Source of the DNA: Candidatus Porisulfidus sp. TsSOB
GTDB taxonomy: Bacteria; Pseudomonadota; Gammaproteobacteria; Poriferisulfidales; Poriferisulfidaceae
NCBI GenBank assembly: GCA_002631715.1
Contig: MRSX01000002.1
Location: 152,478 to 216,477, forward strand
Length of the DNA: 64,000 bases
Reading direction: 5' to 3'
Made by a program: the position numbers and the translations under genes. Below, piece by piece: positions 12,454-56,900 of this stretch; positions within the stretch are counted from its first letter, which is position 1, and every line of letters begins with the position of its first letter. Below the pieces are notes generated by a model that was given only the letters and a program-made list of their open reading frames with translations, made no database searches and was not told the DNA's origin.

Positions 12454-12948
12454 TCAGGCCGGGTTTTTGGGCGTGTCTACCTCGCGCAAGGTGCAGACGG
12501 CAGGACCCAATTCCTGCCAAGAACCGCAGTCCACATCCAGGCGAACCACCGCACAGGTGGGGAGGTCGTTCAAGACTTGATTGGCCAGGTACGCGGCAAC
12601 TCCGCTGGTCGCAGGATTATGGCTGAAAACCGCAACCCGGTCAGCGGCATCGTCCAGTTCGCGTAATTCGCGCAGCAGGTCATTGGGTGAGAAGGTGTAG
12701 AAGCCCTTCCGCAGGCGGATGTCCGCCGCATCCATGCCCAGCGCCTCAGCGAAATGTTCCGCAGTGTCCAACGCCCGGCGGGCAACCGAACTGTAAAGGG
12801 CGTCAATGCCCTCTTGGCGGTCTGCCAGCCGCCGCCCCATTTCCGGTGCATCCCGTTCCCCTCTCGGAGCCAGCGGACGTTCAACATCCGGGACGCTCCA
12901 ATCACTGCGATCAGACTTGGCGTGACGGATGAGGATCAGTTGGCGCAC
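12454..12948 (-). CDS. sixA: histidine phosphatase superfamily protein (SixA-like phosphohistidine phosphatase)
   Basis: LILIRHAKS catalytic RHG-type motif; 164 aa. Confidence 0.7.
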   Translation of the reverse strand: MRQLILIRHAKSDRSDWSVPDVERPLAPRGERDAPEMGRRLADRQEGIDALYSSVARRALDTAEHFAEALGMDAADIRLRKGFYTFSPNDLLRELRELDDAADRVAVFSHNPATSGVAAYLANQVLNDLPTCAVVRLDVDCGSWQELGPAVCTLREVDTPKNPA

Positions 12949-13008: not shown

Positions 13009-13860
13009 TCAATGCAGATCATGGGCCAAAGTCGCCAGCACTTGGTCGCAGGCCACCAGCCCCCACAGATGCCCCACCTTCGGGATAACGGTCAAATAGG
13101 AACCGGGAAACATGCGCGAATAAATGAACGCAGCTTTTGGCACAATCACTTTGTCCTCCGCCCCGTGCCAGATCCGCACCGGCGCATCCAGAGCAATCGG
13201 TGAAGAGGGGCGTTCGCGATAAAAGTTCCTCGCCTCAAAAGCGGTCGCGCGCCCGCTCCAGAGGACCCCGGCAATGCCTTTAGTCAAGCATCGGCGAATT
13301 TCCCGGTCCTTCAGGGCCTGACGATCACTGCGATCGAGACCGGGACCAATCAGGAACCGGGAAAAATTCGGTACAGTTACCGCGGGAATCGCGATCGCCA
13401 AAAACACCAATCGAGCCACCGGGATGCTGACATTCGCCAGTTTCATCAAAATCCGGTGCCCCGGGCCGGGCTGTACGCCTTGCACATGCGCGCTGACCAG
13501 GGTCAAGGCCCGAATCCGGAGCGACTCCTGCCTAGCCACTTCCGCCGCATAGGGACCCCCGCCGGAAAAACCGAGCACCCCGAATTTCTCCACCCCGAGA
13601 TGATCCAGCAAGGCGACCGCATCCTCAATATGCCCCGCGAGACTGTGATCGGGACGGTCATCCGAACCTCCGACACCTGCCCGGTCCGGCGCAATCAGGC
13701 GCAATCCATGTTTCCGGGCCGAAGCGTCGCCCAGCGAAAAGATGTGCCGGGTTCCGGGCGTGCCATGCAAACCCAAAACCGCAATGCCATCGGGATCACC
13801 ATATTCGGCATAGGCCAGCACCCGTCCGTCTGGCAGATTCATGCTCAAATTTTCATTCAT
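13009..13860 (-). CDS. alpha/beta hydrolase fold protein
   Basis: HGTPG oxyanion motif and a GFSGGG nucleophile elbow (GxSxG). Its start overlaps the stop of the upstream 362-aa ORF by 8 nt. Confidence 0.75.
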   Translation of the reverse strand: MNENLSMNLPDGRVLAYAEYGDPDGIAVLGLHGTPGTRHIFSLGDASARKHGLRLIAPDRAGVGGSDDRPDHSLAGHIEDAVALLDHLGVEKFGVLGFSGGGPYAAEVARQESLRIRALTLVSAHVQGVQPGPGHRILMKLANVSIPVARLVFLAIAIPAVTVPNFSRFLIGPGLDRSDRQALKDREIRRCLTKGIAGVLWSGRATAFEARNFYRERPSSPIALDAPVRIWHGAEDKVIVPKAAFIYSRMFPGSYLTVIPKVGHLWGLVACDQVLATLAHDLH

Positions 13861-14941
13861 GATCGGCCAAGCATTCCAAATGTTTCCTGATCGGCTGGAC
13901 GACCGGTTCGATTCGCCGGCGCATGACCGACCCTACCGCATCGCTGACACCGAAAATCGGGTCCAGCAATCGTTCCCCCACCCGGGCCAGACACAACACG
14001 GAACGGCGGAGCTCGGAGAGGTCCGCATCCTCTTCCCAAGGTGCCTGGGACGGCAGGGCGCCAACCTCCTTTTCCAGCTCAGCAAACGTGCGGAACGAGG
14101 CGGTGGCACCGGGCAGGGAAAATCCCTGTCCGATCGCGTTCAGCAAGGCCACCACCACGTCCTGGTTGGGCGGACGTGCGAGCGCCTTTCGGGTGGCCGC
14201 AAGGAAGCCCTGCCCGGACACGTCCAAAGCCCACAGCAGACACTGCGAGAGAGGATCTTTGGAATCCTTGCCGATTGCTGTCTGGGCTTCTTCAAGTTTC
14301 GGGTGCGATGGGTGCGTTTCCGGCAAACACTCGGCGCCAGCCGACAAAAACCCCACCATGTAGGTGGACTGCCTCTGGGCGCGCTGCCACAAGGCGGACC
14401 TCCGCTCTTCGGTCAAGGAGGCATGCCGCAGCAGGCGCTGCAGCGAGGCGATGACATCGCCCGGGCGTTCTTCGAACGGCAAAAATTCAAGAAGAAACTC
14501 CACCAGTGTCGCACCCAACGTGCTGTCGGCAACCGCCGGGCTGTCCAGCATCCGTCGGGCATGTTCGGAGTTCGGTTCCACCCACCAGGCGCGCCGCGCA
14601 AGCTCTTCCGTAAGCCCCGGCGCGTGCACCACTGCTGCGACCGCTTCCGGCTCGCCCAACAGCAGCAACCGCTCCAGCGAACCGTCACGCGCCTGACCCA
14701 TCCGGGTCCAGCGCCGGATGTATAGCGGGTAGCCGCCCGGAGAACCCAGGATCCGGGTGGAAAGCATGGCACGCACTTCGCGCAGATAGGATTCCGGACG
14801 GGTGTTCGGGTGCAGCGCCACTCGCGCTTCTCCCTGGTCGGTCAAGGCTTCCAAGCACATCCTAGACTCATCGATGCGGACCGCCTGCAACGGCTGGGTT
14901 AGCAGCACGTTCATGCGCAACAGGTCGGCTTCGGCCAGCAC
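13853..14941 (-). CDS. hypothetical protein (362 aa, predicted all-alpha, no recognisable domain), member of the MoxR/VWA operon
   Basis: Long ORF packed between the VWA gene (4-nt gap) and the hydrolase gene (8-nt overlap). Leu/Ala/Arg-rich. Confidence 0.55.
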   Translation of the reverse strand: MLAEADLLRMNVLLTQPLQAVRIDESRMCLEALTDQGEARVALHPNTRPESYLREVRAMLSTRILGSPGGYPLYIRRWTRMGQARDGSLERLLLLGEPEAVAAVVHAPGLTEELARRAWWVEPNSEHARRMLDSPAVADSTLGATLVEFLLEFLPFEERPGDVIASLQRLLRHASLTEERRSALWQRAQRQSTYMVGFLSAGAECLPETHPSHPKLEEAQTAIGKDSKDPLSQCLLWALDVSGQGFLAATRKALARPPNQDVVVALLNAIGQGFSLPGATASFRTFAELEKEVGALPSQAPWEEDADLSELRRSVLCLARVGERLLDPIFGVSDAVGSVMRRRIEPVVQPIRKHLECLADHE

Positions 14942-14945
14942 TGCG

Positions 14946-16079
14946 TCAGTTCAGCTGGATTCTCTCGCCCCACGGCACGGAAGCGCGGCCCTTGACCAGC
15001 CACAACACCGGATAAGGCGGCTGGGCTTCCGGGTAGCGGCCCTGGGCATCCGTGAAATACAGCAGCAGGTCCGGCATGCGGTCCTGCCCATTGACCCACT
15101 CGAAGACCGGGCGGAACGAGGTGCCGCCGCCGCCGCTGACTTTCGTCGGCGGCTCCAGTGTCTCCCAGGGTTCAAAGACTTTCGGGCTGTCCGAAGACAA
15201 CTCCTGGTCACATGCGAGCAATGTGATGCGGGCCCGCAAGGTCCCCTTGATCGCATTCACCTCGCCAACGAACTCCGCGATTTCAGTATCCGAAACCGAG
15301 CCGCTGACGTCCAACGCGGTGACGAGGTCGATTTCGCGTCCACGAAGGCTGGGATAGATCGCAGGTCCCTCCCGGCGCGTAGAAGTCCGCTGGTAACTGT
15401 AGTCGTCGCGGGCCAATGCGCCGGTATAGCGGGCGAGCAGTTGCCGCCACGGCAGGCGCGGCATCAACTGCGGGGAGAAATGGCGTTCAAAATTCCCGGA
15501 CAACCGCCCGGCCTGCCGGGTTGCGTCCAGGGCGCGGGAAACCCGGGCCTGCCAGGTCGCTGCCATGGCATTCTGTTTGGCCTGACTGAGCGGGCGGGGC
15601 CCTGCCATCGAATCTTCTTGTCCCGACGAATCGCCGTACAGGTGCAGGTCTTGGGTCCGCTTGTCCTCCATCTCGTCGAGGCAGGGATAGATTTCCTCCG
15701 CGGTAAGGTCCGCGAACTTGGGCTCGTACAGGGCACCTTGGGGAAGCATCATGTCTTCGGCGACCAACAGGCAATTCACCGCGTAGTCGCAGGCGACATC
15801 CCAGCGCCCGCGCGCCCGGTGCCCTCGCCGATGCAGGTGAAGCAAGGCGCAATGGAGAGCCTCATGGCACAGCACCGACTGGACTTCCTCGCCGGTCAGG
15901 CGGTCGATGTAGGCCGGGTTGTAGTAGAAGCTTTGCGTGTCGGTGGCCGTGGTGCGGCACCAATCTCCCCCTTCCACCAGCGGCAGTTGCAGCACCAGGG
16001 CGCCAAGAAAAGGCCGATCCAGAACCAGCCGGGTACGGGCTTGTGCCAGCCGGGTCTTCGCGTCGCGCGTCGCCGGCAT
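14946..16079 (-). CDS. DUF2201-type protein: N-terminal HEXXH metallopeptidase-like domain plus C-terminal von Willebrand A-like domain
   Basis: HEALH motif. The N-terminus resembles DUF2201_N (LVLDRPFLGALVLQLPLVE...YYNPAYI). The ATG at 16079 overlaps the MoxR stop (ATGA). The track ORF extends to 16118. Confidence 0.75.
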   Translation of the reverse strand: MPATRDAKTRLAQARTRLVLDRPFLGALVLQLPLVEGGDWCRTTATDTQSFYYNPAYIDRLTGEEVQSVLCHEALHCALLHLHRRGHRARGRWDVACDYAVNCLLVAEDMMLPQGALYEPKFADLTAEEIYPCLDEMEDKRTQDLHLYGDSSGQEDSMAGPRPLSQAKQNAMAATWQARVSRALDATRQAGRLSGNFERHFSPQLMPRLPWRQLLARYTGALARDDYSYQRTSTRREGPAIYPSLRGREIDLVTALDVSGSVSDTEIAEFVGEVNAIKGTLRARITLLACDQELSSDSPKVFEPWETLEPPTKVSGGGGTSFRPVFEWVNGQDRMPDLLLYFTDAQGRYPEAQPPYPVLWLVKGRASVPWGERIQLN

Positions 16080-17125
16080 CAGTCGTAGACCAGCAGTTCC
16101 GCGACTTGATCCGCCCAAGGTTTGAATTCCGGTGCGCCGAAGACCGCCTCTTCACCAACCCCGCGCATCAGGTCGCAGACCAGCATGACGCCGATTTCGC
16201 GTTGCGGGAACTGTCCGGCGTAGGCCAGGATCGGGCCCAGCACTGTCTCAAGCTTCGATTCACCATTGGCGCGCACGGCCCGGCCGACCAGCGCAGCGGC
16301 GACAGCGTACTGGAGATCCACCGACTCGGGGATTGTTGTGTCCTTGCCTGCCAGCACGTCATCCAAGTCCGGCAATTCCGCAGCATGCTGCACGAAAGCA
16401 TGCAACTGCATCCCTGCTGCCGGACCCACGCAGGCCTGGAGCGACTCGCCCAGCACCAAGGGATCAGACTCGAATTTGCGCAATGCCCGATGTGCGAACT
16501 CCCAGGATCGCGGGGTGGGAAATGCACTGGGATTGTGCTCGGCGTCGAAATCGAACAGAAGTTCCGGGCGCAATCGCAGGAAGCCGATCACCCGGTCGTC
16601 GATCCTTTCTCCATAAGCCCATTGCACCCAGTCGTCCAAGTGCACTTCAATCTCGAAGTGCGAAAAGCGGTTGGCCAGCGGCGACGGCATCACATAGGTC
16701 ACGCCGCGGTCGCCCTGGCGGTTGCCGGCGGCGAAGATGGCCCAGCCGTCCGGGACCTGGTAGTGGCCGAGGCGGCGGTCCAGGATCAACTGGTAGGCGG
16801 CAGCAGAAACGGTCGGCGCGGCCGAAGTGATTTCATCCAGGAACAGGATTCCGTTCGGCCCGTGGCGATCCGTGTTCGGCAGCATGGCCGGAATCGCCCA
16901 ATCCACCGTATCGTCAACTCGAAAAGGGATTCCGCGCAAATCGCTCGGCTCCATTTGCGACAGGCGGATGTCGATCATCGGGGCCGCATGGCGGTCGGCG
17001 ACCTGCGCCACGATCTGCGACTTGCCCACGCCGGGCGGTCCCCAGATCATGGCTGGCGTATGGTGCCCTTGAGCCGCACTGCGGAACTCCTCTTCCAGCA
17101 CCCGGGCGAGTTGGGACGGACGCAT
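16079..17125 (-). CDS. MoxR-family AAA+ ATPase (AAA_5/CbbQ-NorQ-like)
   Basis: Walker A GPPGVGKS, Walker B ILFLDEITSA, sensor/arginine finger region; 348 aa. Confidence 0.8.
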   Translation of the reverse strand: MRPSQLARVLEEEFRSAAQGHHTPAMIWGPPGVGKSQIVAQVADRHAAPMIDIRLSQMEPSDLRGIPFRVDDTVDWAIPAMLPNTDRHGPNGILFLDEITSAAPTVSAAAYQLILDRRLGHYQVPDGWAIFAAGNRQGDRGVTYVMPSPLANRFSHFEIEVHLDDWVQWAYGERIDDRVIGFLRLRPELLFDFDAEHNPSAFPTPRSWEFAHRALRKFESDPLVLGESLQACVGPAAGMQLHAFVQHAAELPDLDDVLAGKDTTIPESVDLQYAVAAALVGRAVRANGESKLETVLGPILAYAGQFPQREIGVMLVCDLMRGVGEEAVFGAPEFKPWADQVAELLVYD

Positions 17126-17130
17126 GTCGA

Positions 17131-17556
17131 TCAGAACCCGGCTTTCTTGTACAAGGCGCGGGCTCGCTCCGTATCCTGCGGCACCAGCTTCCCTTCCTCG
17201 TACATCATGGCCAGCGTAGTCAGGGAGCCCGCCAAACCCTGTTCCGCCGCTTTCTCGTACCAGTACACGGCTTTCTCTCCATTCTGTTCAACACATTCGC
17301 CTTCCATGTACATGAACCCCAGACCGTGCTGCGCGAGCGCCAAACCCGACTCGGCCGCTGCAGTCATCCAGGCGAATGCCCGTTCGGCATCCACCACGCA
17401 GCCCAATCCATTCTGGCACATGATCGCGCATCGGTACTGGGCCTCCGGCTCCCCTGCATCAGCCAACGGGGTCAACAACTGGAGCGCGCGCGAAAACTGC
17501 TTCGATGCGAATGCCGCGATGCCGCTTTGCAGGCTCAACTGGGTCGATTCGTCCAT
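17131..17556 (-). CDS. Sel1-repeat (TPR-like) protein
   Basis: Four Sel1-like repeats (AQYRCAIMCQNGLG / AFAWMTAAAESG / AQHGLGFMYMEG / AVYWYEKAAEQG). Confidence 0.75.
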   Translation of the reverse strand: MDESTQLSLQSGIAAFASKQFSRALQLLTPLADAGEPEAQYRCAIMCQNGLGCVVDAERAFAWMTAAAESGLALAQHGLGFMYMEGECVEQNGEKAVYWYEKAAEQGLAGSLTTLAMMYEEGKLVPQDTERARALYKKAGF

Positions 17557-17558
17557 CG

Positions 17559-18608
17559 CTACAACCCCGCTTCGAAACGTGCCCGTGCCCGACCGCTGTC
17601 GATGGCCTCGCAGGCGGCCGGATAGTGGCGTTGGATGTCCCGGCTGCCGTCGAGATGCGCCAGGATCATCCCCGCCGCATACTGGAGGCTGTCCTTGGCC
17701 GGCCCCGCCTGTCCGCCCAACGCCGCAAGCCCGATCTCGGCCGCGGCCTGCGCTATCTGCTCCACCGACATATCCGAATCCGGTAGGGGCACCGCACGGC
17801 TGTCATGCACGAAATCCAAATCGTCGGCATGGAAATCCCACTCCGTCTCTTCGTCCTTCCCGTGAAGTCCGAAGGCCTTTCCGGCCTGCTTGAGCGAAGG
17901 AAAGATGCCGCCTTCCACGCCACGCACGATCAACGCGGAATCGAATCCCGCCGCGCGGGCCAAGTGTGCGTAAACCGGCGGGTAGGGCTTGTGCACGTAG
18001 CCGGTAACGAGGTGGGTTGCCTCGCGGCCGCGCACTGGTGCGAGCAGCACCTCTACGGTCGTCAGCACCGGCCGCTTGACGATGCGGGTGCGGAATTCCA
18101 GCAACTGGTGCAGGGCGGGACAGAACTGCGATTGATCAACGTAGCTCCAGCCGCATTCGGCTTCCCCCACCCGTGCAGCGGCTTCCCGGGTCGGGCGGTC
18201 CACATCCGCCCCGCAGGCACGCAGGATTTGCCGCGGCGTTACCCCGAATTTCGGTCCGACCGTCTCGGCACCATGGCAAATCGAAGGTGCCCCGCAGGCG
18301 CTCAGTACGGCCGGCAGGAACGCCCCCATCGGCAGCCCGCGCACGAAACCGTCGTACGGTTCCGCCACATCCACAACCTGTGCGACATCCGCCACCTCCG
18401 GCACAGTGTGGTCATGCAGTGCCTCGAGCGCCCCGGTGTTTTCTTCCAAGGTTTCCCGCTTCATGCGCAATGCAATGAAGAAAATCCCCGCCTGCACCGG
18501 ATCCGCCTGCCCGTTCAGGATCAGGTTCAGTGCGGCGCGTGCCTCTTCCTGCGGGAGGTCCTTGCTGTACTCGGGTCCGGTTGCAATGCGCTGCAGAACG
18601 CTGCGCAT
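17559..18608 (-). CDS. TrpD2/YbiB-family protein (anthranilate phosphoribosyltransferase-like fold, nucleic-acid binding)
   Basis: From Met16 (18608) the N-terminus aligns residue-for-residue with E. coli YbiB (MRSVLQRIATGPEYSKDLPQEEARAALNLILNG versus MDYRKIIKEIGRGKNHARDLDRDTARGLYAHMLNG). No TrpD GTGGDG catalytic motif. Confidence 0.7.
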   Translation of the reverse strand: MRSVLQRIATGPEYSKDLPQEEARAALNLILNGQADPVQAGIFFIALRMKRETLEENTGALEALHDHTVPEVADVAQVVDVAEPYDGFVRGLPMGAFLPAVLSACGAPSICHGAETVGPKFGVTPRQILRACGADVDRPTREAAARVGEAECGWSYVDQSQFCPALHQLLEFRTRIVKRPVLTTVEVLLAPVRGREATHLVTGYVHKPYPPVYAHLARAAGFDSALIVRGVEGGIFPSLKQAGKAFGLHGKDEETEWDFHADDLDFVHDSRAVPLPDSDMSVEQIAQAAAEIGLAALGGQAGPAKDSLQYAAGMILAHLDGSRDIQRHYPAACEAIDSGRARARFEAGL

Positions 18609-18666
18609 GAAAGCTTGCGGTTCAGTCTGTGCAGCGGTGGCTGGATCGCTCATCAGTATCCGAAAG

Positions 18667-18740
18667 TGGAGCGGGTGAAGGGAATCGAACCCTCGTTATC
18701 AGCTTGGGAAGCTGAAGTTCTACCATTGAACTACACCCGC
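18667..18740 (-). tRNA. tRNA-Gly (anticodon CCC)
   Basis: Reverse complement reads GCGGGTGTAGTTCAATGGTAGAAC...TTCCCAA...GGTTCGATTCCC...CACCCGCTCCA. This gives a cloverleaf with a 7-bp acceptor stem, a T-loop and a CCC anticodon. Confidence 0.85.
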
Positions 18741-20169: not shown

Positions 20170-21014
20170 ACGAGCCGGACCGCGCCCGGCAGGCAAGACT
20201 GCGCCGGAGATTCGACCGCGCGGCGGCTCGCTACGACGAGTGCGCAGGCGTACAACGCGAAATTACCCATCGGCTGCTTGAACGGCTGGACCTGGTCCAG
20301 TTGGATCCCGGATGCGTGGTGGACCTGGGTGCCGGTACCGGGGACGGAACGGTGCAGTTGCACCAGCGCTACCCCCAGGCTCGGGTTCTTGCGGTCGACT
20401 TCTCGCAAGCCATGCTGCGGCAGGGTCAAAAGCGCGAACTGGCCGGCTCTTCTGTCGTGGCTGACGCGTTTCACCTGCCTTTCGCACCCGGCACGGCCGA
20501 CTTGGTGTTTTCAAGCTCTACTTTGCAGTGGTGTGTACCACTGGCCGAGGTTCTGCGGGAGATCAGCCGCGTGCTACGCCCCGACGGATTGCTGATGTTC
20601 TCGACCTATGGCCCGGACACCCTGCAGGAATTGCATGCCGCGCAACAAGCGGCAGGCATGGAAGGCGGCGTCAACGAGTTCAGCGACATGCACCCCATCG
20701 GTGACCTGCTGCTGGAAGAAGGCTACCAGGATCCGGTTCTTGATGTCGAGCGCTTGGATGTTTCCTATGCGTCGGTTCGAGACCTGATGATTGAACTTAA
20801 GGGCATCGGCTCAAGTCGTATCGAATCCCCGGCCGCACAGCCCTGCACCCGGCATCAGTGGCAAGCCTTGGCCGACGCCTATCCAACCGACGATCAGGGG
20901 CGGATTCACGCGACTTACGAGGTCATTTTCGGGCATGCCCTCGCGCCTGTTTCGCACACTCGTGGCAAAACCGCCACGATCCCGGTCACGGCCGTCGGTC
21001 GGCAAGTCCGATAG
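20166..21014 (+). CDS. bioC: malonyl-[acyl-carrier protein] O-methyltransferase
   Basis: SAM-MTase motif VVDLGAGTG, BioC-like N-terminus (FDRAAARYDECAGVQRE). The start overlaps the bioH stop. Confidence 0.8.
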   Translation: MNEPDRARQARLRRRFDRAAARYDECAGVQREITHRLLERLDLVQLDPGCVVDLGAGTGDGTVQLHQRYPQARVLAVDFSQAMLRQGQKRELAGSSVVADAFHLPFAPGTADLVFSSSTLQWCVPLAEVLREISRVLRPDGLLMFSTYGPDTLQELHAAQQAAGMEGGVNEFSDMHPIGDLLLEEGYQDPVLDVERLDVSYASVRDLMIELKGIGSSRIESPAAQPCTRHQWQALADAYPTDDQGRIHATYEVIFGHALAPVSHTRGKTATIPVTAVGRQVR

Positions 21015-21059
21015 GCCCGCATGGGCATACAATAAGCGGATACGCCAATTTTCCCAGAC

Positions 21060-21548
21060 ATGGCCGATCTGACGCACTTCAACGCCCAGGGCGAAGCCCA
21101 TATGGTCGATATTTCAGAGAAAGAATCCACACACCGCGTAGCGGAAGCGGAAGGGCGCATCCTGATGCAGGCGGAAACCCTGGAGCAGATTCGAGGAGGA
21201 ACCCACCGCAAGGGCGATGTGCTTGGCATTGCGCGAACCGCGGGCATCATGGCCACCAAGCGAACCGCAGAACTGATTCCACTGTGCCATCCACTGTCCC
21301 TGACCCATGCATCAGTCGAGTTCGAACTGGAGGACCAGCCTCCTGCCGTACGTTGCCTCGCGCGCTGCGAAACCAAGGGACCCACCGGGGTCGAGATGGA
21401 AGCCCTGACGGCGGTGCAGGTTTCGCTGCTGACCATTTACGACATGTGCAAGGCCGTCGACCGGGGAATGCGTATCCAGGGGGTCGGGCTGCTGCGCAAG
21501 TCCGGGGGTCGCTCGGGAGACTGGGCGCGCGAAACCGCCTCGTCCTAG
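21060..21548 (+). CDS. moaC: cyclic pyranopterin monophosphate synthase MoaC
   Basis: [18 protein letters not shown]...[14 protein letters not shown] are typical MoaC motifs. Confidence 0.9.
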
Positions 21549-21552
21549 GCTG

Positions 21553-23655
21553 ATGCTGTTCAGGCTTCTGCGTTACACCGCCTTCGGCATCCTGACGCTG
21601 GTGCTTGCGGGCCTGTTGGCACTCAGCTACTTGGTGCTGACGTTCGAACCCGACGATTACCGGGACGACCTCATCAATCTAGTGGAGGAACAGACCGGGC
21701 GGGCATTTACCATCGACGGAAGCCTAGACCTGCACCTGAACCCGCCACTGGTCGGCTTCGAGGTTCATGACATATCGTTCGACAACCCTCCAGGGTTCGG
21801 GCAGGAGCCGATGCTGACCGCGAAACGCGTCGAAGCATACCTGCAAGTCATCCCGTTGCTGCTCGGCGAACTACGCATTCGCTCCGTACTTCTGGACGGA
21901 CTGCAGTTGCGGCTGCGGCGAAAGTCGAACGGACACACCAACTGGTCCGACCTGCTCGCCGACAAGGATGCCCCTAGCCCCGGCCCAAGCGATCCGGGCA
22001 AAGCGACCGGCATTGATCTGGCCGAGATCCACCTGACCGACGGGACCATCGCAATCTGGGACGAACTGCGCAATCGCCGCCTGCGAGGGTCTCATCTCGA
22101 CCTGAACTTGAAGAACCTGACTTCCGGCGGCAACGTGCAGGTCGCATTGAATGGCGAGTTGATGGCCTGGCTCGACACCCGTGCCGAAAGCCGAATCAAT
22201 GCCCAAGTGCAGATGACCACCGATCTCGCCCTGAAAGATGGCGGAGAGAAAATCGCCGGGGAAGACCTGAACATGACGCTGGAGTTAACTGGACCGGCAT
22301 TCGCTTTCATGCGCATCAATCCCACCATTGAGGCCGAATCCTTCCGCTGGGACCAGGCAAGCGACACTCTTCGCCTCGATGGAACCGAGGCGACAGTCGA
22401 AGGTGCGCAGTTGCGACTCGCTCCTCTGGAGGTGAAGTCCTTGTCCGAAAAGCCGGAATTGACGGGACATGTCGAAGGAACCGGCGTCGATGTCCTGCAC
22501 TGGCTGGCCCTGTGGAACGAAGAAGTGCCAACCTTGGAAGATCCGACCGCTTTGCGGTTCCTGAAGTGGCAAGGCGATCTCAGGATCCATCCGCAGGGGG
22601 TCCAGCTGTCGGGACTGGATGCCGTGCTGGATTCCACCCCGATTCGGGGAGAACTCTCTCTCCTGGACTTCGACCGACCGCGGGTCGCCCTAGATCTGCA
22701 GGTGGGTGAAATCGACTTGGACCGTTACCTTCCTCAGGATCAGGAAGCCGAAACTGAGGAAAAACCCGATGCCGAAGATGTGGCATCGCCGAAACCAAGC
22801 AGCTTGCCGGTCGATTGGCTCCGCCAGCAAAGGCTCGTGGCGAAAGTGGCACTGGAACGCCTGCACTGGCAAGGGCTTCAATTCGCAGAAACACATGCCC
22901 AGATGACCGCCAATCAGGGGCTCTGGGAAGTCGAGTCGCTGAATGGAAGAATCAACGATGGCACGGTCGAGGCCAGTGCAGAACTGGACGTCTCTGGCGG
23001 CATCCCGTTGTATCGGCTGGACCTGAAGCTGGAACAGATGGAACTCGGCCGCATGATAGCCCTGTTCGACGAACATGGGCACACTCCCATCGAGGGCACG
23101 ACCGATCTGAATCTGGCCTTCAACGCACGCGGACACCGCATGGCTACGCTTTGGCCTTCGCTGACCGGCTTTGCCAGTTTGACCGTGCGTAACGGCGTGC
23201 TGCAGGTCGGGGGAGTCGCCCAAGCCGTAGAGGCTGCCGTTGCAGCACTGCAAGGACGCCCCAGCGAAACAACCTCCCAAGGCAAGTTGCCGTTCGACCT
23301 GCTGCTTGCGAGTTGGGATGCCAACGACGGGCGATTAACCAGTCGCGAATTGAAGCTGAATGCCGGCGCGATTTCCCTGGACGGGCTGGGTTACATCGAT
23401 CTGCCGCATTCGTCGATCGACTACCAGTTGAATGTCTGGTCCGGCGACAGCCTGCGGATCCCGGTTCGCATCCGGGGACCGTTCGACAACCTATCGCACT
23501 CCCTGGACATGTCGTCACTGGTCGAAGAACAACTGGACAAAGGGCTGGATAAGGGATTGGAATCAATCGTCGATAAGGTCGAGGAAAAAGTCGAAGAAAA
23601 AGCTGGCAAGCCCGCCGGAAAAGTTCTGCGGAAACTGCTCAAAGATCTGTTCTAA
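21553..23655 (+). CDS. asmA: AsmA-family outer-membrane assembly protein
   Basis: N-terminal TM anchor, a long repetitive beta-rich periplasmic region, AsmA-like N- and C-terminal segments; 700 aa. Confidence 0.8.
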   Translation: MLFRLLRYTAFGILTLVLAGLLALSYLVLTFEPDDYRDDLINLVEEQTGRAFTIDGSLDLHLNPPLVGFEVHDISFDNPPGFGQEPMLTAKRVEAYLQVIPLLLGELRIRSVLLDGLQLRLRRKSNGHTNWSDLLADKDAPSPGPSDPGKATGIDLAEIHLTDGTIAIWDELRNRRLRGSHLDLNLKNLTSGGNVQVALNGELMAWLDTRAESRINAQVQMTTDLALKDGGEKIAGEDLNMTLELTGPAFAFMRINPTIEAESFRWDQASDTLRLDGTEATVEGAQLRLAPLEVKSLSEKPELTGHVEGTGVDVLHWLALWNEEVPTLEDPTALRFLKWQGDLRIHPQGVQLSGLDAVLDSTPIRGELSLLDFDRPRVALDLQVGEIDLDRYLPQDQEAETEEKPDAEDVASPKPSSLPVDWLRQQRLVAKVALERLHWQGLQFAETHAQMTANQGLWEVESLNGRINDGTVEASAELDVSGGIPLYRLDLKLEQMELGRMIALFDEHGHTPIEGTTDLNLAFNARGHRMATLWPSLTGFASLTVRNGVLQVGGVAQAVEAAVAALQGRPSETTSQGKLPFDLLLASWDANDGRLTSRELKLNAGAISLDGLGYIDLPHSSIDYQLNVWSGDSLRIPVRIRGPFDNLSHSLDMSSLVEEQLDKGLDKGLESIVDKVEEKVEEKAGKPAGKVLRKLLKDLF

Positions 23656-24691: not shown

Positions 24692-24739
24692 CTATAATCT
24701 TATGGGCCCAGTAATCGACCCCAGCAAGAGAAATGCAAC

Positions 24740-25627
24740 ATGAAAGCGATGACTTGGCCCGGCACCCCTGTCTTTAGCGCCCTGACCCTGACGGCAATCC
24801 TCGCCTATTCTCCGGCCCCCGTCTTTGCGGCGCAGGAAGGAATCTACCTCGGGGTTTCTGCCGCGGCGGAAGAGCTGGACGTGTCGGTTTTCAAAACCAT
24901 CGACAACACGCCCGACGGAAACATGACCTTGTCCCAGGGCAAGATCTTCACGGACCGGGACTCCGACACCAAGACAGCAAGCGGATTCGGAATCGTGCTC
25001 GGGTACCAATGCCCTCTCCACTACGGAAGCCTGTACTGGAGCGGCGAAATCAACTTGGCCTATCACAGCGGGAAAGCGCGAGGCAGGATGGAAGGAACCG
25101 AGGATGTTGCAGCGCGGAAAACCCACAACGACGCGACCGACCCAGACCTCCCGGCTTTTTCGGTCGGCCCGCAAACCGGCGAGAACTGGCCGGAACGCTG
25201 GACCTTCGAGAAAGACTACAGCTATGGCGTGACGCTCAGGCTGGGCGGGCGGCCGGAATTCCTGACCTCCGCGCTCGGCCCGGACGCCGGACTCTATGTT
25301 CTGGCTGGCGTGCGCCGAGTCGAGGCCGAGTACGTGAACACCGGAACCGGTTGTTTCGAAACTCCCCCGACGCTCTGTACAAGCGATGAGGATTTCAGCC
25401 CCAGCGTCGTCCGGACCGACCGGGACTACACTGCTTGGACCCTGGGAATAGGAGTGCATGCGGCGATTGCGGAGCAAGTCGGCCTGCAAATCGAAACCTA
25501 CTACATGGATTACGATTCGGAATCTCTGGTTCAGCTCGACGGGACAGAAGACCTGCGGGTGCGCGCCATGCATGAACCGGACGCCGAGGAAATCGGCCTG
25601 AGAATGAGATTGCTGCGGTATTTTTAA
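24740..25627 (+). CDS. outer-membrane beta-barrel protein (paralogue 1 of a tandem pair)
   Basis: Signal peptide, amphipathic beta-strand periodicity, C-terminal LRMRLLRYF ending in aromatic Phe. It has a Cys pair in a predicted loop. Confidence 0.6.
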   Translation: MKAMTWPGTPVFSALTLTAILAYSPAPVFAAQEGIYLGVSAAAEELDVSVFKTIDNTPDGNMTLSQGKIFTDRDSDTKTASGFGIVLGYQCPLHYGSLYWSGEINLAYHSGKARGRMEGTEDVAARKTHNDATDPDLPAFSVGPQTGENWPERWTFEKDYSYGVTLRLGGRPEFLTSALGPDAGLYVLAGVRRVEAEYVNTGTGCFETPPTLCTSDEDFSPSVVRTDRDYTAWTLGIGVHAAIAEQVGLQIETYYMDYDSESLVQLDGTEDLRVRAMHEPDAEEIGLRMRLLRYF

Positions 25628-25637
25628 TCTTAGCCAG

Positions 25638-26498
25638 ATGAAGCTGTTCAAACGTTCGGGGGATTTTTCCGTTTTGGCCTGCGTAGTGGCGCTGGCCGGT
25701 GCGCCTGGTTTTTCTTCCGCCATGGAAGAAGGGTTCTACATGGGGCTTTCCGCCTCTGCAGAGAATCTGGACGTCACCCCCTCCCGAATCACGGACAACA
25801 CGCATTCCATGAACGCGACCACTTCCCGTGGCCGGACTTTTTCCACCCGGGATTCCGATACCCAGACAACCAGCGGATTCGGTATCCTGGCCGGCTACAC
25901 CTTCTGCCCAAGCAATCGGGAACTGTATTTGAGCGCTGAAATCGACTTGGCCTATCACGGTGGCAAGGCGCGGGGAAGACTAGCGTGGATCAAGGATTCC
26001 GTGCTCCGGGCAGGCGCAAACAACGTACCCGACTGGCCGCAATCCGGCGAAGGCTGGCCGGACGACTGGACGTTTGAGCAAAACCGCAGCTACGGCCTGA
26101 CCCTCAGACTGGGCGGGCAACCGGATTTCCTGATCTCCATGCTTGGGCCGGACTCCGGGCTTTACGTTTTGGCCGGCGTCCGTCGCATTGAGGCGGAGTA
26201 CTCTCTTTCCTTCGAGGGCTGCCCCGAGGACGACGGCTGTCCCGACGGGAGAGAAGACGAGTCTTATGCCCAAGGGTCCGACCGGACCGACACGGACTAT
26301 ACCGCCTGGACTGCGGGGCTCGGGCTACACACCCCGGTCGGGGACCGGCTCGGGATGCAGGTCGAAATGTACTACACCAACTATGAGGAAGAGAACCTGT
26401 TGCTTCTGGACGACAAGGGTCCGCCTCACATTCGAGTCGTGCATTCGCCGGATGCTGATGGAATCGGTTTGCGATTGCGGCTGCTGCGATATTTCTGA
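25638..26498 (+). CDS. outer-membrane beta-barrel protein (paralogue 2 of a tandem pair)
   Basis: Collinear with the upstream gene (GFGI(V/L)LGY, SGEINLAYHSGKARGR versus SAEIDLAYHGGKARGR, GLYVLAGVRR(V/I)EAEY, identical LRLRLLRYF end). Confidence 0.6.
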   Translation: MKLFKRSGDFSVLACVVALAGAPGFSSAMEEGFYMGLSASAENLDVTPSRITDNTHSMNATTSRGRTFSTRDSDTQTTSGFGILAGYTFCPSNRELYLSAEIDLAYHGGKARGRLAWIKDSVLRAGANNVPDWPQSGEGWPDDWTFEQNRSYGLTLRLGGQPDFLISMLGPDSGLYVLAGVRRIEAEYSLSFEGCPEDDGCPDGREDESYAQGSDRTDTDYTAWTAGLGLHTPVGDRLGMQVEMYYTNYEEENLLLLDDKGPPHIRVVHSPDADGIGLRLRLLRYF

Positions 26499-26521: not shown

Positions 26522-27292
26522 GTGCCCTTCTCGGCGTTCCGAGGTCCTCTTCTGCGGCAGTGCAGGACTTCCCTCTGCATTATTCTTGCCGCCAGCTTAC
26601 ACACCCCGACCGTCTCGGCCGAAACCTGGCGCGGCCTGGTCGTCGAGCCGGAAGATCGTTGCTCGCCCTACCGGAGCAACGACTATTCCTATCCACAGTC
26701 GGTCGAACCTAAAATCGTCACCGAACTCGGAAAAATCTACAGCCCTTACACCGGGCAGTGTTTCGGCAGCATTCGACAAACCGACATCGAACATATCGTG
26801 GCTCGTTCCGAAGCGCATGACAGCGGGCTGTGCCGCGCAGACATTGCCACCCGAAAAAGATTCAGTTCCGATCTTCTTAATCTGACGCTGGCAAGCCCCA
26901 CGCTCAATCGACAACAGAAACGCGCCTACGATGCGGCTGAATGGATGCCCGAAATCAATCGCTGCTGGTTCGCCAATCGCGTGCTTCAAGTGCGCCTCAA
27001 GTACGGGCTGAGCATCGATCGGCGCGAGGCTGAAGCCCTGGAGCGGACCCTTTCCGCTTGCACGACGGTCGGAATCGAGAAATCGGACTGCGTTGCCGTG
27101 TCCGACCTCCCGGCTTCCCGTCCCGCAGCCTCTTCAGAGGACGCGGAGGCCCTGCGCCTTTGGGACGACAACCGGAACGGAAGAATTACCTGCCGCGAGG
27201 CGCGCTGCCACGGAATTGCGCCCGTGCCGCGTGGGCATCCCGCCTATCCGTTCATGCACGATGGTGACGGCGACGGCGTGGTCTGTGAATAA
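26522..27292 (+). CDS. secreted protein with DUF1524/GmrSD-C-like HNH (His-Me finger) nuclease motif and C-terminal Excalibur Ca-binding domain
   Basis: Signal peptide. TDIEHIVARSEAHDSG resembles the DUF1524 catalytic motif. The C-terminal WDDNRNGRITCREARCHG...HDGDGDGVVCE matches the Excalibur DxDxDG...CE signature. It is Cys-rich. Confidence 0.6.
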   Translation: MPFSAFRGPLLRQCRTSLCIILAASLHTPTVSAETWRGLVVEPEDRCSPYRSNDYSYPQSVEPKIVTELGKIYSPYTGQCFGSIRQTDIEHIVARSEAHDSGLCRADIATRKRFSSDLLNLTLASPTLNRQQKRAYDAAEWMPEINRCWFANRVLQVRLKYGLSIDRREAEALERTLSACTTVGIEKSDCVAVSDLPASRPAASSEDAEALRLWDDNRNGRITCREARCHGIAPVPRGHPAYPFMHDGDGDGVVCE

Positions 27293-54913: not shown

Positions 54914-56128
54914 CTATGCTTGATTGTCCTCTTCCACGGCTATTTCCAAGCGTTGCAGGAAGTCTGGAATAGCTGAACGAACCCGACGCCAACTCGGAAC
55001 GTACGGGCTTTCCATCGGGTGCGCCAGAAAATCCTCCCCGGCCTTCAGCAAGTTGCTGGCAAATAGCTCCGCTGCCTGCTCTTCCGCATCCCGATCCAAG
55101 TTCAGCCCGTTGGTGACGGCATCGCTCTGGTAGTATTCGATCAGGTCCAGCGCTTCCCGAAGATAGGCAGCCTTGAGGCTGCGGAACACGCCTTCGGAGA
55201 ACACCTCGCCCTCGATCGCCATCTTCCTGAAGACGGCCTTGCAGATGTCTGCGCTCATCTTCGACAGCCCCGACTGCGCATCGGCCTCTCCCATCTGCTG
55301 GTGTTTGTGGTCGTACAGGTCCGCGATGTCGATCTGGCAGATGCGCCGGCTTGAGTACATACGCCGGATCTCGGCGAGCAGGCCGATCTCCAGGCCCCAG
55401 TCGTCCGGCAGGTACAAGTCCTTGAGCACGTGGGTACGCAACGAGCACTCCCCGGCCAGCGGATAGCGGAAACTGTCGAGAAACTCGACGAAATCGTGTG
55501 GCCCGAACACCTTGCTGAGGGCACGCAGCAGCGGTGCCACCAACAGTCGCGCCACCCGCCCCTTCAGTTCCTGCTCGGAAATGCGCGAATAGTAACCTTT
55601 GCAGAACGCGAAACTGAAACTCGGGTTCGCGACCGGATAGATCAACCGCGCCAGCAGGCGGCGATCGTACGTAATGATGTCGCAGTCGTGCAATGCCAGG
55701 GCTTTTGCACGGTCGGATGCCAGCACGTACCCGAAACAGAACCAGACGTTACGCCCCTTTCCTTGCTGGCTCGGCGCCAAACCCCGTGCCTCCAGTTCAT
55801 CCGCCAAGGCCCGCAGCCTGGGACCATCATTCCAAAGCACGTGGTGGGGCTGCGGCAGGCGGGAGAAGAAGTCTCGTGCCCGTTTGAACTGTTCCGCATC
55901 GGCCGCATCCAGACCGATTACGATCTCGTTCAGGTATTCGACCTGCGCCAGTTCTTCGATGATCCGGTCAAGCGCCGGCCCCTCTAGCTCCGAATACAGG
56001 GAAGGCAGCACCAGCCCCAGCGGACGGTCTTGAGAAAATCGAAGCAATTCCGCCTCGAATTCCTCGGTGGGGCGTCCCGCCAGATCGTGCAGCGTGACGA
56101 TCTGTCCATTCTGGAAAAAATCACTCAT
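54914..56128 (-). CDS. glucosyl-3-phosphoglycerate synthase-like glycosyltransferase (MpgS/GpgS family; sugar specificity unresolved)
   Basis: About 405 aa. It resembles the Osmo_MPGsynth-type synthases. The ATG at 56128 overlaps the HAD phosphatase stop. It is co-operonic with pgi and an MPGP-family phosphatase. Confidence 0.5.
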   Translation of the reverse strand: MSDFFQNGQIVTLHDLAGRPTEEFEAELLRFSQDRPLGLVLPSLYSELEGPALDRIIEELAQVEYLNEIVIGLDAADAEQFKRARDFFSRLPQPHHVLWNDGPRLRALADELEARGLAPSQQGKGRNVWFCFGYVLASDRAKALALHDCDIITYDRRLLARLIYPVANPSFSFAFCKGYYSRISEQELKGRVARLLVAPLLRALSKVFGPHDFVEFLDSFRYPLAGECSLRTHVLKDLYLPDDWGLEIGLLAEIRRMYSSRRICQIDIADLYDHKHQQMGEADAQSGLSKMSADICKAVFRKMAIEGEVFSEGVFRSLKAAYLREALDLIEYYQSDAVTNGLNLDRDAEEQAAELFASNLLKAGEDFLAHPMESPYVPSWRRVRSAIPDFLQRLEIAVEEDNQA

Positions 56129-56900
56129 GGCTGCCCTCCAGCAGCGTCTGAACCGCGCGCGACCAAGCCGTCGGTCCGGTCCCCTCCGGGACGCGCGCAC
56201 CAGGATATTGTATGTTGCGCCCGCCAGGGTTGTTGATAACCACCGCGATATCCGCTGCCGACATCATGCCCAGATCGTTCGGCCCGTTGCCAAGTGCCAC
56301 GCTGACTGCTTCCGGATGCCGCTGCCGATAACGCGGCACCAGATGCTCCAGTGCAACCCGTTTGTCGGTTTCCCCCATGACATGCACGAAGCGGTCTCCA
56401 CGCTTGAGGATCAGCCCATGCGGGCGCAGGCTTTCCGCAAATTCGTCGAGGCACCCCGGATCATCACGCCAGACCAGCGGCTCGCTAAAGCGTCTCTCTC
56501 GGGCCGCCGCCACCGAACCGGGCGGCAAGCCGCAGGCAGCCTCCACCTCTTCTTCACTCATGTCGGAAATCCCCTGGAAGCGGAACGAGGCAGACAGTCC
56601 GTCCAAGGCGGCCCGGATCGCCGGATGGGGGGCGCCAAATGGAATCAGCCCTTCCGCCTCGCCGTCGCCGAAAGTCCCGGGCGGCACGTATACCGCGCCC
56701 CCGTTTTCAATCGAAAACGGCGCATGGATCCCGAGTTCCTCCCCCAACTGAAGGGTCTCCTGTTCGGTCTTGCTGGTGTTGAAGATAATCGGCACACCGT
56801 GCCTGCGGGCGCACTCGATTCCGGGCAGTGCCTCCTCCCAGCGATACGTTTCGACGTCGAGCATCGTCCCATCGACGTCGCTGAACAGAAGATAGCGCAT
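56121..56900 (-). CDS. HAD-IIB phosphatase of the mannosyl/glucosyl-3-phosphoglycerate phosphatase (YedP/MpgP) family
   Basis: DVDGTMLD motif I, TSKT motif II. The C-terminal GNGPND with SAADIAVVINNP fits YedP-like proteins. Confidence 0.7.
   Translation of the reverse strand: MRYLLFSDVDGTMLDVETYRWEEALPGIECARRHGVPIIFNTSKTEQETLQLGEELGIHAPFSIENGGAVYVPPGTFGDGEAEGLIPFGAPHPAIRAALDGLSASFRFQGISDMSEEEVEAACGLPPGSVAAARERRFSEPLVWRDDPGCLDEFAESLRPHGLILKRGDRFVHVMGETDKRVALEHLVPRYRQRHPEAVSVALGNGPNDLGMMSAADIAVVINNPGGRNIQYPGARVPEGTGPTAWSRAVQTLLEGSHE

Follow-up and report, generated by a model that had tools for sequence, protein, structure and literature searches.

The 64-kb window analyzed here (64,000 nucleotides of Candidatus Porisulfidus sp. 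TsSOB, contig MRSX01000002.1; all positions are those of the window) carries a minus-strand array of six genes whose core is a conserved cassette of sulfur-oxidizing bacteria: a MoxR-like AAA+ ATPase gene, a gene for a protein that joins a zincin-like DUF2201 domain to a von Willebrand factor A (VWA) domain, and dsrS. Gene identities, conserved synteny, motif conservation and folds establish this cassette, and we lean, with slightly better than even confidence, toward a MoxR/VWA-type remodeling chaperone of the sulfur-oxidation machinery in which DsrS serves as adaptor. A preliminary description of the same stretch had treated the six genes as one unit that includes an orphan protein. Surveys anchored on DsrS and on the VWA protein keep AAA-VWA-DsrS, often with Sel1, and not the six genes as a set; the array is therefore composite, with a deep core (AAA-VWA-DsrS), an accessory Sel1-repeat gene, a clade-specific TrpD2-like neighbor and a hydrolase added at the level of the genus. 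On this reading the architecture, the third partner and the physiological context would all be new for a MoxR/VWA chaperone system. We found no paper in the open-access literature that links DsrS to a MoxR/VWA pair, and to that extent the combination is, as the preliminary description supposed, uncharacterized.

The six open reading frames (ORFs) run head to tail on the minus strand at the coordinates first given for them, on which the ORF listing and the sequence agree. They encode a TrpD2/YbiB-like protein (17559-18608, 349 amino acids), a small cytoplasmic protein of three Sel1 repeats (17131-17556, 141 amino acids), the MoxR-like ATPase of the AAA_5 class (16079-17125, 348 amino acids), the DUF2201/VWA protein (14946-16079, 377 amino acids), DsrS (13853-14941, 362 amino acids, GTG start) and an alpha/beta hydrolase (13009-13860, 283 amino acids), and Pfam bears out each of the domain calls made earlier (TrpD-like, Sel1, AAA, DUF2201 and hydrolase). 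Read from the sequence, the successive junctions are a 2-nt gap (TrpD2-like to Sel1), a 5-nt gap (Sel1 to AAA), a 1-nt overlap in TGATG (AAA to VWA), a 4-nt gap (VWA to dsrS) and an 8-nt overlap at the dsrS stop (ATGAATGA, dsrS to hydrolase). The tight coupling described before is thus real, at gaps or overlaps of 1–8 nt, but the ATPase and VWA genes meet in TGATG and not in the ATGA that had been reported. The start of the TrpD2-like gene at the ATG at 18608 is backed by the N-termini of orthologs, and its frame is also open from 18653. Gene calls for the array are identical on an independent Logan contig, and 11 Porisulfidus genomes, with DsrS identity as low as 62%, have all six in the same arrangement; these are therefore real genes and not chance ORFs. 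The nearest relatives by DsrS (95–96% identity) are gammaproteobacterial metagenome-assembled genomes from sponges, followed by "Candidatus Porisulfidus" chromosomes of 1.6–2 Mb, and the genus serves as outgroup to SUP05 in the literature. A promoter and terminator scan of the locus returned sites no more numerous than in shuffled sequence and is therefore silent on co-transcription.

By homology, the supposed orphan is DsrS, an accessory protein of the oxidative Dsr pathway. It aligns over its full length (residues 6–360) with DsrS of Thiorhodococcus minor at 40% identity (E 1e-88), and in that organism dsrS closes a canonical dsrEFHCMKLJOPNRS operon, after DsrE/H/C/M/K/L/J/O/P/N/R (locus L172). 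A homology search with the window protein returned 4037 relatives, some of which NCBI names "sulfur reduction protein DsrS," and an exhaustive profile search recovered only 513 DsrS cluster representatives among 1.84 billion proteins, so that the family is compact. The earlier observation that the 362-amino-acid protein has no recognizable domain holds in that it has no Pfam, NCBIfam or PHROG matches, but it belongs to a family and is no orphan. The fold begins with a small beta unit of three strands at the N-terminus and continues as a HEAT/ARM-like alpha-solenoid; DsrS is a nonenzymatic alpha-solenoid protein. In the dsr operon of Allochromatium vinosum, dsrS is the last gene and has its own promoter; its role has been described as unresolved, and the protein is reported in the literature to be nonessential. 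In many chemolithotrophs, among them Sulfurifustis, Sulfuricaulis and Thioalkalivibrio, dsrS lies outside the dsr cluster, and the papers note just that it is "located elsewhere." That elsewhere is usually directly behind a conserved MoxR-like ATPase/VWA pair, which points to the working partners of DsrS.

This association emerges from both surveys. The DsrS-anchored survey comprised 80 loci from species-representative genomes, 64 of them with at least 4 kb of upstream sequence, onto which the window proteins were mapped by tblastn; the VWA-anchored survey used metagenome contigs, with 60 loci scored upstream and 59 downstream. The AAA-VWA-DsrS core, conserved in sulfur-oxidizing Gamma- and Betaproteobacteria, is present in 44/64 DsrS-anchored loci, as Sel1-AAA-VWA-DsrS in 39 and without Sel1 in 5, while 17/64 have Sel1-DsrS and 3/64 have DsrS alone. 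Seen from the VWA gene, the ATPase gene lies upstream in 59/60 loci and the following gene is dsrS in 37 of 59, a gene for an M48/TPR protein in 5 and an unrelated gene in 17. We considered the HDOD, adenylate kinase, GGDEF and thioredoxin genes found at these 17 loci as substitutes for DsrS and rejected them, since the loci correspond to a stand-alone arrangement of the Thiohalobacter type. The gap between the VWA gene and dsrS has a median of 16 nt and is at most 30 nt in 65/103 cases. The triad is retained with highly divergent DsrS proteins (P0268 and P0250; loci L083/84 and L087) and occurs on a betaproteobacterial Gallionellaceae contig as well; the adjacency survives even at 36–45% DsrS identity to the window protein, and among family members that share just 27–38% identity with one another. 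The family tracks sulfur oxidizers. Thiohalophilus is among the cultivable carriers of the cassette in contiguous form. Co-occurrence across genomes, which had been suggested as a check on the array as a whole, is thus found for AAA-VWA-DsrS, often with Sel1, and not for the TrpD2-like and hydrolase genes. In the most divergent triad loci, a stand-alone SprT-like zincin gene occupies the usual slot of Sel1 (L083:1572-2087 and L084:7171-7686), and an M48 peptidase gene lies two genes downstream of dsrS.

Cassettes that have come apart keep their parts. In A. vinosum, whose VWA ortholog is 55% identical to the window protein, the chromosomal order is AAA (Alvin_2108), VWA (Alvin_2109), M48/TPR (Alvin_2110), soxY and soxZ, with the AAA-VWA locus at L089:8965-13506 (CP001896, about 2.416–2.421 Mb). 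The DsrS ortholog, Alvin_1265, is encoded apart from the pair, in the dsr operon after dsrN and dsrR. The same components are therefore present as in the window, the VWA ortholog within "sox cluster one" (Alvin_2108-2112), but they are spread over two loci, and the pair has no Sel1 or TrpD2-like neighbor there. The A. vinosum genome paper lists Alvin_2108-2112 as a cluster and says that soxYZ alone encode Sox proteins in it; on pyrite, Alvin_2110 and soxYZ are induced together (PMC11267869). A divergent 65-amino-acid ORF upstream of the A. vinosum pair is presumably Alvin_2107, a homolog of which was highlighted in a transcriptome of thiotrophic symbionts (PMC8269255). Thiohalobacter is split in a different manner: T. 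thiocyanaticus has Sel1-DsrS (L038), and in Thiohalobacter sp. IOR34 the AAA-VWA pair stands by itself (L091).

The ATPase has the motifs of a MoxR-like protein. Its Pfam matches to AAA (31.2 bits) and to AAA_5 (29.7 bits, where 22 are required) both pass, while no NCBIfam family was matched. Walker A (GPPGVGKS, residues 29–36; 17018..17041, minus strand) and Walker B (ILFLDE, residues 93–98; 16832..16849, minus strand) can be read directly from the sequence. Among 42 orthologs, nearly all positions of these motifs and of AAGN and PLANRF are at least 95% conserved, including the stretch GILFLDEITSA around Walker B and all of Walker A except one Pro (at least 70%); the protein is 62–70% identical across distant sulfur oxidizers. 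With AAA_5 above cut-off, intact Walker motifs and the VWA gene adjoining by a 1-nt overlap, the earlier assignment of a MoxR-like AAA+/VWA pair is supported.

The VWA protein is equally constant in architecture. DUF2201_N (PF13203; 2e-44, 152.6 bits against a cut-off of 23.2) covers its N-terminal part and DUF2201 (PF09967; 6e-25, 88.2 bits against 26.4) its C-terminal part, and this arrangement, at about 375–465 amino acids, is shared by all orthologs. The C-terminal domain has a Rossmann-like alpha/beta fold that matches NorD, midasin and BchD, and it contains a complete metal ion-dependent adhesion site (MIDAS): DVSGS at residues 257–261 (15297..15311, minus strand), GGGGT at 316–320 and FTD at 342–344. 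Alignment A2 shows no variation at D257, S259, S261, G316-T320 or F342-D344, and across 48 orthologs taken from the loci these positions are conserved to 95% or more. Invariant Walker A/B motifs and the MIDAS signature DxSGS...GGGGT...FTD are the motifs that a MoxR/VWA machine needs, and their conservation favors the chaperone. The DUF2201 family, to which the N4-phage gp24/gp25 pair belongs, is widespread and essentially unstudied, with four mentions, all incidental, in the open-access literature; the sulfur-oxidizer cassette provides a first cellular context for it.

The N-terminal domain had been noted for an HEXXH zinc-peptidase-like motif, and HEALH, zincin-like when read from the sequence, is indeed present at residues 72–76 of the window protein (15852..15866, minus strand). 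The motif is not constant across the family: in 126 orthologs the residue pair that precedes ALHCAL is HE in 102, KQ in 17, NQ in 3, HD in 2, QQ in 1 and QE in 1, so that HExxH is kept in 81% and gone in 19% (24/126). Because these 24 orthologs sit in cassettes that are otherwise intact (ATPase, MIDAS, DsrS and Sel1 being conserved), catalysis cannot be what holds the cassette together, and the pattern of substitution indicates that peptidase activity is not the conserved function of the protein. Similarity of the domain to the minimal zincin selecase is weak (profile E 0.12; Foldseek rank 48, probability 0.99), and no third metal ligand was recognized in it; Pfam labels the domain a putative metallopeptidase and gives a weak SprT-like match as well. 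What remains invariant even without HExxH is a block, ALHCAL-H-x2-RR-x2-R-x4-W-x2-AC, at residues 72–100 (15780-15866). The invariant residues of the N-terminal domain are H76, C77, H81, R84, R88, W93 and C97, among which the His (H76, H81) and Cys (C77, C97) residues suggest a metal or cofactor site unlike that of a classical zincin.

The pair also has relatives outside sulfur oxidizers. The best profile match of the ATPase is the phage family phrog_1297 (1e-90), and the VWA protein matches phrog_1314 (7e-81); these families contain gp24 and gp25 of coliphage N4, true homologs with the same adjacent two-gene architecture. The window ATPase is 31% identical to an N4-like gp24 (E 6e-41), and phage gp25 has HExxH and an intact MIDAS motif. 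AAA-DUF2201 pairs occur in 557 phage records at 22–33% identity, but the N4-type pair differs from the window cassette in having no DsrS or Sel1 partner. AAA-DUF2201 is an ancient two-gene unit, and the sulfur-oxidizer clade appears to be a distinct branch of it that acquired DsrS. Escherichia phage vB_Eco_Jura carries gp24-gp25 at L174:1733-4101, and jumbo phages and Thermus phage phiFa have the pair as well. Both phrog_1314 and many GenBank records are labeled "HNH endonuclease," a name that does not fit the zincin-like and VWA/MIDAS content of these proteins.

In the mechanism that we favor, the VWA protein would dock on the ATPase ring, its MIDAS site would grip an acidic residue of the client or of the adaptor, and ATP hydrolysis would remodel the client. 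In DsrS, Asp6 is a candidate for such a residue, being invariant in both DsrS alignments. DsrS, as an alpha-solenoid, and the Sel1 protein where present would be adaptors that confer specificity for the cytoplasmic sulfur-oxidation apparatus. The client would most likely be the reverse dissimilatory sulfite reductase (rDsrAB) or the loading of its siroheme/[4Fe-4S] cofactor, or alternatively the surrounding sulfur-relay proteins. Gene neighborhoods hint at the cofactor: cysG, for siroheme synthase, is found immediately downstream of dsrS and in its orientation in 30/69 loci, and in L087 it stands upstream of the triad and divergent from it; DsrC is encoded within about 8 kb in 14 loci; and in dsr operons dsrS comes after dsrN (siroheme amidation) and dsrR (IscA-like). 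DsrS thus recurs beside genes for the siroheme and Fe-S cofactor of DsrAB. In Porisulfidus, the TrpD2-like gene and the hydrolase have been appended to an array that resembles a transcription unit. Precedent comes from characterized MoxR/VWA pairs, which serve in the maturation or repair of metallo- and redox enzymes: NorQD in FeB insertion, CbbQO in the reactivation of rubisco and RavA-ViaA on respiratory complexes. By analogy with these, a remodeling role in sulfur oxidation is plausible, and the linkage to dsrS together with the A. vinosum pair beside soxYZ makes it genetically tractable.

The window pair is distinct from the two closest of these systems, as an earlier proviso about housekeeping pairs required us to consider. 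NorQ/NorD, a MoxR AAA+/VWA pair that inserts nonheme FeB into nitric oxide reductase, shows marginal similarity (E~1e-3); NorD lacks a zincin-like DUF2201_N domain, the window has no nor genes, and the window cassette, unlike NorQ/NorD, has a separate alpha-solenoid protein, DsrS, as a conserved third partner. CbbQ/CbbO resembles the cassette in concept, a MoxR-class ATPase and a VWA adaptor that repair an autotrophy enzyme of chemolithoautotrophs and are encoded beside their client, and it differs in that CbbQ similarity is at E 5e-3 and the window has no rubisco genes. CbbO is a much larger protein than the window VWA protein. No cognate enzyme of either system is encoded in the window.

Several observations weigh against a chaperone dedicated to sulfur oxidation with DsrS as its adaptor. 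Remodeling by ATP hydrolysis is an inference, as are physical interaction and the choice of client, for which synteny is the sole basis, and the loci surveyed are phylogenetically nonindependent, so that their counts overstate the number of independent events. The similarity of the ATPase to NorQ, CbbQ and midasin is marginal (E 1e-3 to 6e-3). No sulfur-related gene follows the pair in 17/59 VWA-anchored loci, and the 64-kb window holds no dsr, sox or apr gene other than dsrS. In A. vinosum the pair adjoins soxYZ, which encode periplasmic proteins, and not dsr, so the client could belong to another part of sulfur oxidation. With HExxH kept in 81% of orthologs, proteolysis may be of importance to most lineages. 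Finally, DsrS reportedly takes part in controlling dsr expression at the post-transcriptional level and is reported not to be essential.

A more specific version of the chaperone, which we regard as rather unlikely, is that AAA-VWA-DsrS is dedicated to the reverse dissimilatory sulfite reductase, as an "rDsr activase" that uses ATP to mature or repair this enzyme. In such a machine DsrS would hold apo- or damaged DsrAB, or a siroheme/siroamide intermediate, and the VWA MIDAS together with the ATPase ring would power the step in which the siroheme-[4Fe-4S] cofactor is inserted or exchanged. It would parallel FeB insertion by NorQD and the AAA+/VWA/third-subunit logic of the Mg- and Co-chelatases, with CbbQ/CbbO as its conceptual model. 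CysG, however, carries its own chelatase, and the resemblance to the class I chelatases BchI/BchD(/BchH) and CobS/CobT(/CobN) is architectural only, DsrS not being homologous to BchH or CobN. Were an activase of this kind to exist, DsrS, named more than two decades ago, would at last have a function, and MoxR/VWA chaperones would gain a new class of client.

The N-terminal domain raises a second alternative, an ATP-regulated protease in which DUF2201_N is an active zincin and the AAA+ protein, with DsrS and Sel1, delivers or unfolds a specific substrate. That substrate, part of Dsr or Sox or else a regulator, would be matured or turned over by the cleavage. The HEALH of the window, the HE kept in 102/126 orthologs, the Pfam name, the weak SprT-like and selecase matches, and the recurrence of other peptidases beside the pair (M48/TPR in loci of the A. 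vinosum type; SprT-like and M48 in L083/L084) all agree with it. We nevertheless judge it unlikely, as 24/126 orthologs replace the first metal ligand, the catalytic Glu or both in otherwise intact cassettes, and no substrate or cleavage site is known.

It is less likely still that the cassette is a post-transcriptional or nucleic-acid regulator, in which DsrS and the TrpD2/YbiB-like protein would form a complex that binds RNA or DNA, adjusts dsr expression and is remodeled by the VWA protein and the ATPase, loosely like Ro60 with its HEAT repeats and VWA domain. The separate promoter of dsrS is compatible with such a role, the best solved relative of the first gene product is the DNA-binding YbiB, and gene-fusion data of Grimm et al. 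2011 reportedly suggested that A. vinosum DsrS takes part in post-transcriptional control. But the TrpD2-like gene is outside the core, occurring in 3 VWA-anchored loci and usually in divergent orientation, no nucleic-acid-binding motif was identified in DsrS, and no characterized MoxR/VWA pair is known to act on RNA.

Chance offers a further explanation, namely that a general-purpose AAA-VWA module came to lie beside dsrS fortuitously in one large proteobacterial radiation. The pair is self-contained in phages and stands alone in Thiohalobacter and in 17/59 metagenome loci; moreover, related Gammaproteobacteria make up much of the diversity sampled, and shared ancestry inflates the counts. 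This we consider very improbable, because the adjacency persists at the low DsrS identities given above and amid wholly different surrounding genes (L083/84, L087, L173 and the window), the gaps are typically under 30 nt, and the A. vinosum pair, when away from dsrS, is found beside soxYZ, another sulfur-oxidation locus.

The preliminary description had also raised an island inserted at a tRNA gene and a defense or conflict role. A tRNA-Gly(CCC) gene does lie where it was reported (18667-18740, minus strand; ARAGORN), 58 nt upstream of the TrpD2-like gene, and, as stated then, no integrase accompanies the array (no integrase domains were found among the neighbors). The locus is nonetheless a stable, vertically inherited piece of chromosomal synteny and the tRNA is not an island junction, because GC content is 0.60–0.64 across the locus and uniform with the flanks, no second copy of the tRNA 3′-end repeat (attachment site, att) is present in the window, adjacency to tRNA-Gly is genus-wide (8/8 Porisulfidus loci tested vs. 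0/8 other loci), and the flanking genes are housekeeping (PlsY, BioH/BioC-like proteins, AsmA, MutY, Pst, AsnB, QueG, RpoD and others).

Kaur, Burroughs, Iyer & Aravind 2020 described vWA-MoxR ternary conflict systems in which the pair restructures a complex formed with a third component. The cassette resembles these in that genes for a MoxR-type ATPase and a vWA protein stand together with one for a helical third component, and the idea of restructuring could apply to it, but it lacks their VMAP, iSTAND or beta-propeller components, their variable vWA-fused effectors and their diversification, its architecture being fixed and strongly conserved, and it tracks sulfur oxidizers with no association with multicellular prokaryotes. 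PADLOC returned only noise for the cassette (E 2.5e-3 or weaker, 14–15 bits), and the bpMoxR model scored 17.4 bits, under its cut-off of 27. A mobile NTP-dependent vWA-MoxR conflict system inserted at tRNA-Gly is therefore hardly credible, in spite of the ATPase, the vWA protein and further genes beside a tRNA gene, the distant phage homologs of the module and weak sub-threshold matches to IetA/IteA ATPase models, and the locus should be annotated as dsrS-associated and not as defense-related.

The remaining genes of the array are associated with the core to different degrees. The Sel1 protein (Pfam Sel1, 2.8e-29) is a frequent accessory: its gene is upstream in 39/44 AAA+VWA+DsrS loci of the genome sample and abuts dsrS in 17 loci without AAA or VWA, while just about 13 VWA-anchored metagenome loci have it. 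The TrpD2-like protein has the Pfam domains Glycos_trans_3N and Glycos_transf_3, stays below the NCBIfam cut-offs for PRK07394 (1e-49, 169.5 vs. 287 bits) and YbiB (9e-25, 87.6 vs. 185 bits), and finds its best PDB match in the DNA-binding protein YbiB (4muo, 2.8e-13). We rejected its identification as a true trpD product, the TIGR01245 score being 73.7 bits against a cut-off of 199 and GTGGD, the phosphoribosyl pyrophosphate-binding motif of TrpD, being absent; in the HMMER alignment, EPYDGFVRG stands in the YbiB-aligned region at the place that GTGGD takes in TrpD. On these similarities the protein belongs to a related but distinct subfamily of TrpD2/YbiB. Its gene is near 30/39 full cassettes vs. 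3/14 Sel1-only loci, co-oriented in Porisulfidus only and divergent in 23 loci; being rare in VWA-anchored loci (3 loci) and usually divergent, it is not part of the core. The hydrolase (Pfam Abhydrolase_1, 1.3e-19) lies downstream of dsrS in the Porisulfidus loci (L001-L012) and in none of the others.

A SixA-like histidine phosphatase gene (His_Phos_1; 12454-12948, minus strand) follows the hydrolase by 60 nt on the same strand. It was found in Porisulfidus only, at about 60 nt to about 8 kb across the genomes of the genus, and because of this variable distance it is probably outside the cassette. The loci from outside Porisulfidus (L013-L081) have a recurrent neighborhood of their own, about 4–8 kb upstream and 1–3 kb downstream of dsrS: DUF6866 (32 loci), a 2OG-Fe(II) oxygenase (26), a GNAT acetyltransferase (24), an unannotated 210-amino-acid family (33), an unannotated 184-amino-acid family directly after dsrS (25), CysG, glutaredoxin and an AhpC-like peroxiredoxin. 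This wider neighborhood was rejected as a part of the window locus, as none of its families is found in the window.

Elsewhere in the window, several long ORFs of 231–428 amino acids lack Pfam matches (24692-25723, 54914-56200 and 1421-2155 on the minus strand; 20858-21553 on the plus strand); some of them overlap annotated genes on the opposite strand and may be spurious. A 256-amino-acid protein with a GmrSD_C-type restriction-endonuclease domain and a C-terminal Excalibur calcium-binding domain is encoded at 26522-27292 on the plus strand, 8 kb from the cassette, and its gene is the sole defense-flavored one that we noticed in the window. Near the window end, a large minus-strand ORF (61754-63967) encodes ketosynthase (KS), KS-acyltransferase (AT) linker and acyltransferase domains of the polyketide or polyunsaturated fatty acid synthase type, with a KS domain that is N-terminally truncated relative to the Pfam model.

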